Of a stretch of DNA of 8,624 bases, positions 7,468 to 8,624 are shown piece after piece. This DNA comes from a virus (taxonomy: Monodnaviria; Loebvirae; Hofneiviricota; Faserviricetes; Tubulavirales; Inoviridae): the IMG/VR virus record IMGVR_UViG_2541047910_000001; one strand, given 5' to 3'. The notes under the pieces were generated by a model. The model saw only the letters and a list, made by a program, of their open reading frames with translations, was not told the DNA's origin and ran no database searches. The position numbers were made by a program, and so were the translations under genes. Positions within the stretch are counted from its first letter, which is position 1; the number at the start of each line of letters is the position of its first letter.

Positions 7468-8262
7468 ATGAAGCCAGAAAAAGCTATCGAGATATTAAAA
7501 AGACAACGGGAGCAAATCCCAGCAATACAAAATGAACGAAGGAGTACAGGAAATAACCCAAGTTTTAACTTATGGCAAAGAAACACTAAGACCGCCATAT
7601 CAAAAATATTTGGTGAAGAGTCAGATCACAAAAAAGAATTTGGCTCAATTCGATACTCTTTAATGGCATTTGTTGGTGATACACCAGATTATGTTTTCGA
7701 TAACGCATTTTGTAGTGGTTTAGATGAAGCACATTCTCTTCTTACGTCTATGATTGCTGAGATTGAAGAATATGGAATTGACGGAAATTTCATAGAGACA
7801 AAAAATGATCCCGTAGCTCTTGTTGAACTAATTTGCCATCAATTTCATAAGGTTGCAAGACAGCTACAGCAACGACACGATAATAGACAAACCATTGAAA
7901 TAAATGACGAATATGACGTTCAGGATTTATTTCATGCTCTTTTGAAGATTCATTTCGAGGATGTCAGACCAGAAGAATATACGCCAAGCTATGCAGGATC
8001 TTCAACACGAGTTGACTTCTTGTTAAAGAATGAAAAAATCATTATCGAGTTAAAGAAAACGAGAAAAAATCTCAAGCAAAAAGAAGTTGGTGAGCAATTA
8101 ATTGTTGATATAGCTCATTATCAAACGCATCCTGATTGCGAAACTTTAGTGTGTTTTGTATATGACCCTGAAGGTAGAATTGCCAATCCAATTGGTGTGG
8201 AGAATGACCTTGAGCGTTGTACAAATTCAATTTCGGTAAAAGTAATAATCTCACCAAAATAA
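7468..8262 (+). CDS. Hypothetical protein with C-terminal PD-(D/E)xK nuclease-fold motif; candidate defence or toxin nuclease
   Basis: Good SD (gaggaaag) upstream; helical N-terminal region, then motif block EYDVQDLFHALL ... STRVDFLLKNEKIIIELKK (D183 at 8014-8016, E194 at 8047-8049, K196 at 8053-8055) ... QLIVDIAHY, the classic restriction-endonuclease-like D-x(n)-E-x-K arrangement; gene is markedly AT-rich. Confidence 0.6.
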   Translation: MKPEKAIEILKRQREQIPAIQNERRSTGNNPSFNLWQRNTKTAISKIFGEESDHKKEFGSIRYSLMAFVGDTPDYVFDNAFCSGLDEAHSLLTSMIAEIEEYGIDGNFIETKNDPVALVELICHQFHKVARQLQQRHDNRQTIEINDEYDVQDLFHALLKIHFEDVRPEEYTPSYAGSSTRVDFLLKNEKIIIELKKTRKNLKQKEVGEQLIVDIAHYQTHPDCETLVCFVYDPEGRIANPIGVENDLERCTNSISVKVIISPK

Positions 8263-8272
8263 AAGGACATAT

Positions 8273-8539
8273 ATGGCTACTGTAGATGATGTTGCACAAT
8301 GGATGAAATCAGAGCTGGAAAACACAAACTGGCTATATCAAGAAACTGTTGTATATAAAATAAAAGAGTTATTTGGCGATACTTTCGTATATTTGAATGC
8401 TAATGGAAATTTATCCATTGATAAAAAAGTATTAGCGAAGTTTAGAAAGCTAACTAATGACACGGTTATATGGGAGAGAGGTGAAAAAGCATGGCGAAAA
8501 AGACAAGGTTATGATGCCCCTGGTCGACAGCAGGACTAA
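8273..8539 (+). CDS. Small hypothetical protein co-transcribed with the nuclease-fold protein; possible partner, immunity or antitoxin component
   Basis: 88-aa ORF starting 10 nt after the upstream stop, with AAGGA 5 nt before the ATG; basic C-terminus (KAWRKRQGYDAPGRQQD); same AT-rich composition; followed by the terminator. Confidence 0.55.
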   Translation: MATVDDVAQWMKSELENTNWLYQETVVYKIKELFGDTFVYLNANGNLSIDKKVLAKFRKLTNDTVIWERGEKAWRKRQGYDAPGRQQD

Positions 8540-8545
8540 ATAATT

Positions 8546-8572
8546 GGTTCGCACAATGACGTTATGCTAAAG
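8546..8572 (+). other. Degenerate dif-like sequence (XerC-arm-like, 5-nt spacer, XerD-arm-like)
   Basis: ggttcgcacaa matches GGTGCGCATAA at 9/11 and ttatgctaaag matches TTATGTTAAAT at 9/11, but the spacer tgacg is 5 nt rather than the canonical 6. Confidence 0.3.
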
Positions 8573-8573
8573 A

Positions 8574-8609
8574 GGCCGCTGCGGGATTCGATTTTCGCAG
8601 CGGCCTTTT
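8574..8609 (+). terminator. Rho-independent terminator of the plus-strand accessory operon, embedded in a longer imperfect inverted repeat
   Basis: Perfect 10-bp GC-rich stem ggccgctgcg/cgcagcggcc (8574-8583 and 8596-8605), 12-nt loop, then TTTT (8606-8609). The repeat extends to 22 nt per arm (8562-8583 vs 8596-8617, 19/22 matching). Confidence 0.65.
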
Positions 8610-8624
8610 CAACATAACGAGTCG

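Follow-up and report, generated by a model that had tools for sequence, protein, structure and literature searches.

A two-domain nuclease cassette in a hypervariable slot beside the attachment site of a CUS-1/YpfΦ-type filamentous prophage of Escherichia coli: a candidate for anti-phage accessory cargo

Filamentous phages of the CUS-1/YpfΦ family integrate at the chromosomal dif site, carry two inverted XerC/D-like sites and share a 7.1-kb core that is 99% identical (PMC4266046). Two open reading frames (ORFs) adjacent to attL vary between these phages, and those of CUS-1 (orf1/orf1a) and YpfΦ (YPO2271/YPO2272) were described as unrelated pairs of unknown function, with "no predicted function" (PMC4266046). 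The same 2014 review left the function of these terminal ORFs open, and nothing in the phage was found to explain its fitness benefit (PMC4266046). In the CTX-I inoviruses of Vibrio, anti-phage systems are over-represented in the hypervariable regions (pHVRs) that separate zot from xafT, and decayed remnants of these phages retain only the cargo (PMC12715192). At the protein level, a structurally solved relative of the nuclease studied here is EcbAgaN, whose isolated C-terminal domain is toxic, whose N-terminal domain autoinhibits the full-length dimer, and whose activated form is a non-specific DNase (2026, PMC13535254). Here we describe the IMG/VR record IMGVR_UViG_2541047910_000001 (Inoviridae; 8,624 nucleotides, hereafter the window), which holds a prophage of the CUS-1/YpfΦ type, and in it a cassette of two genes beside the attachment (att) site, encoding a 264-aa nuclease and an 88-aa DUF6953 protein. 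We propose, with somewhat more confidence than doubt, that this cassette is anti-phage accessory cargo in a hypervariable slot, consisting of a one-protein, self-restrained DNase defence gene and a facultative DUF6953 companion.

The proposal of a single regulated effector is based mainly on the swapping of domains in both directions. In the AlphaFold model of the 264-aa protein, a helical N-terminal domain (residues 1-102) is connected by a low-confidence linker to an α/β C-terminal domain. Positions 1-103 of the PADLOC model PDC-S35 (PDLC05005) match residues 1-107 at 3.6e-11, and the match is limited to these residues, the C-terminal half being PF18742 and not TIR; DUF8371/PF28130 is recorded on the N-domain of two homologues (P0069 and P0110). 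Since a word-indexed protein search with the N-domain alone gave only fragments of the 264-aa protein, an exhaustive HMMER search with residues 1-112 was used instead, which returned 462 cluster representatives in which the domain is almost always N-terminal. Among 96 longer proteins with this domain, 52 carry a TIR domain (45 of the CAP12/Pycsar type and 7 others) and 18 a DpnII-MboI nuclease. In the other direction, Pectobacterium brasiliense has a nuclease domain that is 79% identical over residues 119-264, behind an unrelated N-terminal stretch of 116 residues. Regulated single-protein defence effectors usually show such an arrangement, with varied effectors on a shared N-module and varied N-modules on a shared effector, and the fusion of this N-domain mostly to TIR effectors suggests, at the level of sequence, a one-protein defence of the abortive-infection (Abi) type.

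The C-terminal domain belongs to a well-populated family. Residues 118-264 match Pfam PF18742 (REase_DpnII-MboI) at 6.9e-59, with 198.1 bits against a cut-off of 27 and over the whole domain (profile positions 2-150 of 150), and the PADLOC model Aga_Helical-REase (PDLC02411) matches residues 97-263 at 1.3e-34; NCBIfam has no model for the nuclease or for the 88-aa protein. Across 58 homologues, E148, D183 and K196 are invariant and E194 is conserved in at least 90%, giving the E...D...ExK motif. The only significant solved relative is EcbAgaN (PDB profile match with the family profile, E=1.5e-4), with whose catalytic residues D298/E309/K311 D183/E194/K196 align, and the nearest structural folds include BstYI, BglII and BamHI. 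A preliminary description, made from the letters of the window, had already called a PD-(D/E)xK fold with D183, E194 and K196 as its triad, and both calls hold; its statement that neither protein could be placed in a named family does not, as the proteins match PF18742 and PF22266 (DUF6953), and the profile check against Pfam and PADLOC that it had suggested, once run, gave matches of the nuclease to PADLOC models too.

The nuclease family is large (3617 matches), and identity among its members exceeds 50% across Proteobacteria, Bacteroidota and Firmicutes. The loop TPSYAGSST (aa 171-179, window 7978-8004) is nearly invariant in the family (T172, P173, S174, Y175, A176 and G177), has the lowest confidence in the structure model (predicted local distance difference test, pLDDT, <50), and may function in DNA binding or oligomer contacts. 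A 58%-identical homologue also occurs in another inovirus (locus L049, an 8.2-kb IMG/VR contig with Zot, a Rep_trans-type initiator and Secretin_N, unrelated to this phage), at positions 6001-6780, on the strand opposite the core genes and in the same relative position as in this phage.

Membership in a family whose Pfam prototypes are DpnII and MboI raises a different reading, in which the protein is a GATC-cutting enzyme of that kind, rendered harmless through host Dam, or a modification-dependent, type IV-like enzyme; either would act directly on incoming DNA that is unmethylated or differently modified, without suicide of the cell. BstYI, BglII and BamHI, which are among its nearest folds, recognise GATC-containing sites, and E. 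coli and Klebsiella are Dam+, so that no methyltransferase would be needed. GATC is also scarce in the window, with 18 sites versus 31.5±5.4 in dinucleotide-preserving shuffles; however, the depletion is confined to the shared backbone, where copies without the nuclease have it too, and the cargo has the expected number, which led us to discard GATC counting as a non-discriminating test. No methyltransferase was found in the window or beside the homologues sampled, and solitary homologues at 52-55% identity occur in Alphaproteobacteria, Bacteroidota and Firmicutes, groups that are not known to be Dam+ and in which a constitutive GATC cutter would be lethal. An N-domain that is common to TIR NADase-type effectors fits a regulated effector better, and the strongest profile relative is of the non-specific AgaN class. 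A restriction enzyme of this kind is, in our judgement, unlikely.

The most informative context of the cassette, which the preliminary description lacked, is the slot next to att that it occupies. About 90 complete E. coli genomes contain the phage backbone, and 24 of these carry this cassette. We surveyed 29 phage copies, taken from E. coli genomes and IMG/VR; between the stop codon of a 140-aa membrane-protein gene and att they show nine or more distinct contents (Table 1), with a variable segment of 0.4-1.2 kb where the locus includes both borders. The slot is empty in 2 of the 29 copies (IMG/VR loci L104 and L106, positions 3920-3933), in which att begins 13 nt past the stop codon and the 140-aa protein is 89% identical, and judged by these sequences the empty slot would be the ancestral or minimal state. 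The slot thus combines variable content, a fixed position and conserved flanks in near-identical phage genomes, as hypervariable regions do, and by analogy it would be a defence-type region of the kind known in Vibrio CTX-like phages. Three of the cassettes have Abi- or defence-type domains, namely the REase/PDC-S35-like protein described here, a CAP12-type TIR protein, which matches the PDC-S35 model in its TIR part only, and an AbiJ_NTD4+DUF7014 protein. We found no description in the literature of such a slot in the CUS-1/YpfΦ group, or of a defence role there. Several other cassettes open with a small hairpin (CCGTGG-GAAA-CCACGG and variants) right after the 140-aa stop codon (loci L018 9523-9560, L080 6023-6060, L086 and L098), which is not seen in this window's cassette.

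A location beside att could also mean that the cassette serves the phage itself, either by excluding rival filamentous phages and plasmids, or by acting at att, for instance with DUF6953 as an att-binding accessory factor in Xer recombination and the nuclease processing replicative forms. The DUF6953 gene immediately adjoins att, a linkage that is kept in P. brasiliense, and its product looks winged-helix-like; moreover, xafT (Xer activation factor) adjoins the variable region of the Vibrio CTX-I phages (PMC12715192), and a resident YpfΦ confers partial superinfection immunity (PMC4266046). Nevertheless, copies with other cassettes or an empty slot retain the same backbone and att module, which disfavours a role at att, and YpfΦ is known to form infectious particles and to integrate despite having unrelated ORFs in its attL-adjacent segment (PMC4266046). 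In 25 other genomes, in which att-like sites were not scanned, DUF6953 has no phage neighbours. We consider a phage-serving role to be quite unlikely.

The two cargo genes have the same orientation and are spaced by 10 nt, and the preliminary description had read them as an obligately coupled two-gene or toxin-antitoxin (TA) module. In such an addiction module the nuclease would be the toxin and DUF6953 the antitoxin, stabilising prophage or plasmid by post-segregational killing. Apart from the tight spacing, this would agree with the frequent carriage of TA pairs by inoviruses (PMC6813254), with an intact DUF6953 gene that follows a decayed nuclease fragment in Morganella, the pattern of orphan antitoxins, and with the joint travel of the nuclease C-domain, DUF6953 and att between E. 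coli and P. brasiliense. Yet linkage of the two families is hardly ever seen except in a few Enterobacterales (this phage, P. brasiliense and Morganella). In 25 species genomes that encode DUF6953, the nuclease never lies within 4 kb of it, and no neighbour of DUF6953 recurs; of 34 viral contigs with the nuclease, only three have DUF6953, all of them this phage (0/31 others); and in all five non-paired genomic contexts, including Magnetospirillum, Riemerella, Paenibacillus and P. polaris, the nuclease is solitary, with insertion sequence (IS) elements, ParDE, PemK and a Mrr_cat-nSTAND gene among its neighbours. The conserved pairing that marks a type II TA module is absent from all three samples. 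In P. polaris an 85%-identical nuclease lies without DUF6953 at the same chromosomal locus as in P. brasiliense, which indicates that the nuclease is tolerated without its companion. In addition, DUF6953 has a near-neutral net charge, by count from the sequence, and a stable, confidently predicted fold with no disordered neutralising tail. Because the two proteins rarely co-occur, we find the TA reading poorly supported and improbable; what remains of the earlier interpretation is a separately acquired cargo with a nuclease, for which defence is the best-supported reading, but not the obligate module.

The model of DUF6953 has the topology α-β-α-β-β-α-β-β, and its best Foldseek matches are all winged-helix domains (CapW, BrxR, DtxR/MntR, and F-112 and F93 of archaeal viruses), with E values of at least 0.2, template modelling (TM) scores of ~0.5 and none of them significant. 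From this model we regard DUF6953 as a facultative accessory protein that probably binds nucleic acids, and have low confidence in any more specific role.

Cargo of this kind might also be a functionless hitch-hiker, left behind as a by-product of recombination. The copy in the window is probably defective, with a truncated secretin, and the homologue in L049 is a pseudogene, both as would be expected of a passenger; on the other side, neither cargo ORF is disrupted, both keep an identity of at least 99.6% in 24 E. coli genomes of diverse host origin as well as on a Klebsiella plasmid, and the nuclease family is strongly conserved, with more than 50% identity across phyla and 45 invariant alignment columns. 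A passenger without function is therefore, in our view, very unlikely. Several points do weigh against the defence proposal. With its secretin truncated, this copy may be under a different selection from an active phage. Foldseek against the PDB gave no significant match for the 264-aa protein, and the N-domain of the L049 homologue has three in-frame stops, which make it a pseudogene or reflect a sequencing error. In most of the other cassettes, six or so, no defence domain could be recognised. The idea of autoinhibition is carried over from AgaN, to whose N-domain ours shows no detectable homology, the PADLOC match covering residues 97-263 only; PADLOC has no model for the full architecture of N-domain plus nuclease, and PDC-S35 is itself a predicted candidate. 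Literature searches yielded no experiment on this nuclease family and no papers on DUF6953, PDC-S35, DUF8371 or PF28130, and the family is not covered in a modular-discovery preprint.

Under the proposed one-protein defence, the C-terminal DNase would be kept inactive by, or through, the N-terminal four-helix bundle, until an infection cue altered the state of the N-domain, by binding or oligomerisation, and released the nuclease, which would then degrade DNA and halt the infecting phage while sacrificing the cell. The nuclease would probably be transcribed in the lysogen together with the repressor gene, which we infer to be the probable head of a transcription unit containing the cargo. Both cargo genes are co-oriented with the HTH repressor and 140-aa genes, opposite to the morphogenesis and replication genes, and no consensus promoter was found between 7400 and 7468 in a promoter and terminator scan that performed no better than on shuffled sequence and overlooked the att hairpin. 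DUF6953 would most likely be a small winged-helix, nucleic-acid-binding modulator of expression or activity, and not an essential antidote. Cassettes would probably be exchanged by recombination of co-resident or tandem phage genomes, with the 140-aa gene and the ~90-nt att module as flanking homology.

The borders of the acquired segment can be placed to the base. Prophages of strains UTI89 and DEC5E are ~99.4% identical to the window from 214 to 7396/7400 and resume at 8544, and as this homology stops at the stop codon of the 140-aa gene and restarts at 8544, the acquired segment is precisely that between them. Its GC content is 35.3%, versus 42.0% for the remaining window, and lies below that of any core window of the same 1143 bp (lowest value 36.5%). 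In these respects the preliminary description stands: the coordinates of its two ORFs are correct, both lie on the strand opposite the phage core, whose Pfam-identified genes are all on the minus strand, both have a Shine-Dalgarno-like site, and together they are AT-richer, separately acquired cargo, with sharp homology borders, carried by a filamentous prophage with inovirus core genes. A search of Rfam found no RNA family. The cassette was also considered as an independent mini-element with a second dif-like site on its left; inspection showed none at 7398-7467, and none was found elsewhere in locus L001 (a full-length copy of the phage) within 7 substitutions.

Table 1. Features of the window and alternative contents of the slot between the 140-aa gene and att (positions are those of the window).
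Feature	Position	Strand	Basis or remark
Cargo cassette, 1143 bp	7401-8543	+	Segment differing between otherwise ~99%-identical prophage copies
Shine-Dalgarno-like GAGGA	7457-7461	+	6 nt before nuclease ATG; read from sequence
264-aa two-domain nuclease gene (WP_001527023.1)	7468-8262	+	ORF; Pfam PF18742; PADLOC; AF2 pLDDT 86
N-terminal four-helix-bundle domain, aa 1-102	7468-7773	+	Proposed regulatory or sensor module
C-terminal PD-(D/E)xK restriction-endonuclease-fold domain, aa 115-264	7810-8262	+	Predicted catalytic E148, D183, E194, K196
Shine-Dalgarno-like AAGGA	8263-8267	+	In 10-nt spacer between both genes; read from sequence
88-aa DUF6953 gene (WP_001527024.1), winged-helix-like	8273-8539	+	Pfam PF22266 1.8e-28; AF2 pLDDT 95.8
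HTH_3 repressor gene, RstR-like	6432-6878	+	Pfam HTH_3 1.6e-9; NCBIfam phage_RstR weak match
140-aa membrane-protein gene (phrog_4174), left slot border	6978-7400	+	88-100% identity in all 29 copies; homology stops at stop codon
dif-like site GGTTCGCACAATGACGTTATGCTAAAG, first att arm, right slot border	8546-8572	+	Identical behind every cassette variant and in P. brasiliense
GC-rich hairpin (GGCCGCTGCG / CGCAGCGGCC) + TTTT	8574-8609		att palindrome tip; possible bidirectional terminator; conserved in all variants
Inverted dif-like arm, first half	8610-8624	-	Continues into window 1-15 in circular/tandem form
Chromosomal dif half (TACATTATGCGCACC), other prophage end	1-15	-	dif 28-mer, 0 mismatches, L001 5988-6015; window 1 = L001 6001
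Slot content 1			Nuclease + DUF6953 pair
Slot content 2			367-374-aa protein, UTI89 type, single ORF
Slot content 3			368-aa CAP12/Pycsar-type TIR protein
Slot content 4			309-314-aa AbiJ_NTD4+DUF7014 protein
Slot content 5			155-aa + 123-aa pair
Slot content 6			Zinc-ribbon protein + 159-aa protein
Slot content 7			110-aa protein
Slot content 8			98-aa + 262-aa set
Slot content 9			101-aa + 240-aa pair

The minus strand of the window encodes a complete inovirus core by Pfam matches (Secretin, Zot, a 570-aa pIII-like protein, G5P and G2P/Phage_CRI), and on the plus strand the HTH_3 repressor and 140-aa membrane-protein genes are followed by the nuclease and 88-aa genes. Prophages in E. coli chromosomes match the window at 100% identity, and in strain D8 the prophage adjoins hipBA, with a perfect 28-bp dif that overlaps window positions 1-15. 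With inovirus core genes, chromosomal dif integration and two inverted dif-like sites, the element is an XerCD/dif-integrating filamentous phage, and its backbone and layout match the published descriptions of the CUS-1/YpfΦ type. The INPHARED collection contained no nucleotide or protein match, and the phage is known only as a prophage.

Compared with every full-length copy examined, the window lacks 879 bp at a junction near position 214 (L001 6215-7093). The deletion takes two short ORFs on the att side, which in L001 encode hypothetical proteins of 66 aa and 83 aa and may be equivalent to YPO2280a/YPO2281, as well as the C-terminal ~69 residues of the pIV secretin, whose ORF (181-1251) encodes 356 aa versus 414 aa and whose Pfam Secretin match ends at profile position 111 of 169; because of this truncation, the copy has probably lost the ability to extrude virions. 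The pIII-like ORF (2580-4292, minus strand) has 570 aa from the first possible start versus 520 aa (1563 bp) in RefSeq, which leaves its N-terminal 50 residues uncertain. A 135-nt stretch of the repressor gene (window 6471-6605) is 92-97% identical to HTH genes on ~40-kb E. coli plasmids, a sequence similarity which suggests that repressor segments are exchanged with other elements. In the lysogens SCU-101 and A4, host hipA/hipB are truncated pseudogenes at the prophage junction (L081 7365-7685 and L082 6981-7493).

The stem of the GC-rich hairpin (8574-8605) lies between two inverted dif-like arms, the region 8543-8619 gives an inverted self-match, and read from its sequence the hairpin forms the apex of an att palindrome that folds back as in CTXφ. 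The preliminary description had assigned this stem, with its TTTT, to the cargo pair as its own terminator; since the hairpin also follows each of the alternative cassettes, and the empty slot as well, it is not specific to the pair. A role as terminator of host hipA was rejected, given that the hairpin turns up again in Pectobacterium, on plasmids and within tandem arrays of the phage. No match to the E. coli dif consensus lies inside the window at up to 3 mismatches, the att arm having diverged further and the true dif spanning the start of the window.

The cassette and its att are not confined to E. coli. On the Klebsiella pneumoniae IncFIB/IncHI1B plasmid NZ_CP132684.1 (L084, 70356-80444), a tandem array of the same phage has identical nuclease and DUF6953 proteins and an intact secretin, which shows that this phage, with its cargo, has crossed from one genus to another and is able to insert into a plasmid. 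The array joins the last base of the window to its first, and hence the window corresponds to precisely one unit of the phage, opened at the Xer crossover. Behind the nuclease-DUF6953 pair of P. brasiliense come the identical 27-bp dif-like site and the hairpin, and the ~10-kb loci around it showed no inovirus genes, either called or detected. The ~72-nt att module (window 8545-8616; dif-like site plus hairpin) is present at ~93% identity on 482 plasmids of Escherichia, Klebsiella, Salmonella and others (for example at locus L085 3001-3071), 425 of them conjugative. On pRK100 the stop codon of an AbiJ_NTD4+DUF7014 ("STM4504/CBY_0614 family") gene marks the start of the module; this gene is 60% identical to one in a phage cassette and has no phage genes nearby. 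These units of cassette and att look like relics of integrated phages that kept their cargo, or products of recombination at Xer sites.

The unit of interest is then a different one from that of the preliminary description: a probable one-protein DNase defence with a dispensable companion, placed in a hypervariable slot at att in the CUS-1/YpfΦ family. We tentatively raise a broader view, which we lean against as a whole, in which CUS-1/YpfΦ phages are mainly carriers of swappable anti-phage cassettes, the four-helix plus REase protein is a new and widespread single-gene Abi system, and units of cassette plus att are seeded onto hundreds of conjugative IncF-type plasmids via Xer. If true, the long-unexplained terminal ORFs would have a function, there would be a defence-based reason why these phages, which are associated with invasive E. 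coli K1 clones and pandemic Yersinia pestis, are retained, and the four-helix-domain plus REase protein would be the DNase counterpart of the TIR-bearing PDC-S35 family. A slot that takes defence-type genes would open the question of the terminal ORFs to simple plaque assays and would widen the concept of inovirus hypervariable regions from Vibrio to medically important Enterobacterales. The analysis nominates a large (>3600 clusters) and highly conserved nuclease family as a candidate one-protein defence, and an N-domain in common with TIR effectors would make a compact model for one sensor module in control of different killing domains. The att module after an AbiJ-like gene on about 480 plasmids, mostly conjugative ones, hints at an Xer-site route for the spread of cassettes.

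Among described proteins, EcbAgaN, the effector of a BPAN long-B Argonaute system, resembles the cargo nuclease in having a helical N-domain and a C-terminal PD-(D/E)xK domain of the same profile family, with aligned D-ExK residues; it differs in length (390 aa versus 264 aa) and in an N-domain that is not detectably homologous. Furthermore, no Argonaute gene was found among the ORFs of the window or in any sampled neighbourhood, so that, unlike in AgaN, a guide-loaded prokaryotic Argonaute cannot be the activator. PDC-S35, and the proteins in which the N-domain is joined to CAP12/Pycsar-type TIR, share with it a homologous four-helix N-domain, a length of ~260 aa and single-gene organization, but their effector is TIR where a DNase-type domain is predicted here. 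DpnII and MboI are members of the same Pfam family as the cargo nuclease, whose fold is near those of BstYI, BglII and BamHI; the cargo nuclease, in contrast, lacks a cognate methyltransferase, has the TIR-shared N-domain and is solitary across phyla. Shedu (SduA) is a single-protein defence system with variable N-terminal regulatory domains on a PD-(D/E)xK nuclease and, if that description holds, would be alike in releasing a restrained nuclease on infection; the subfamily differs, as the cargo nuclease gave no Shedu/DUF4263 match in Pfam or PADLOC.

At the level of the locus, the pHVRs of Vibrio CTX-I phages and the defence hotspots of P2/P4-like elements are likewise short variable segments with Abi- or TIR-type genes in a conserved temperate-phage backbone, and the CTX-I phages further share XerCD integration at dif and relics that keep the cargo. 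The phage lineage and hosts are different, being here the E. coli, Klebsiella and Yersinia group, and the slot is located not between zot and xafT but on the side of the repressor, where the 140-aa gene and att enclose it. Provided that attL is the end next to hipA, CUS-1 orf1/orf1a and YpfΦ YPO2271/YPO2272 occupy this same position in phages of the same family; they differ in gene content, so that the window has a third distinct cassette, while the UTI89 copy has a single ORF of ~370 aa. Prophage defence hotspots and modular Abi effectors are both known kinds of system, and the cassette and its slot extend these without forming a new category.

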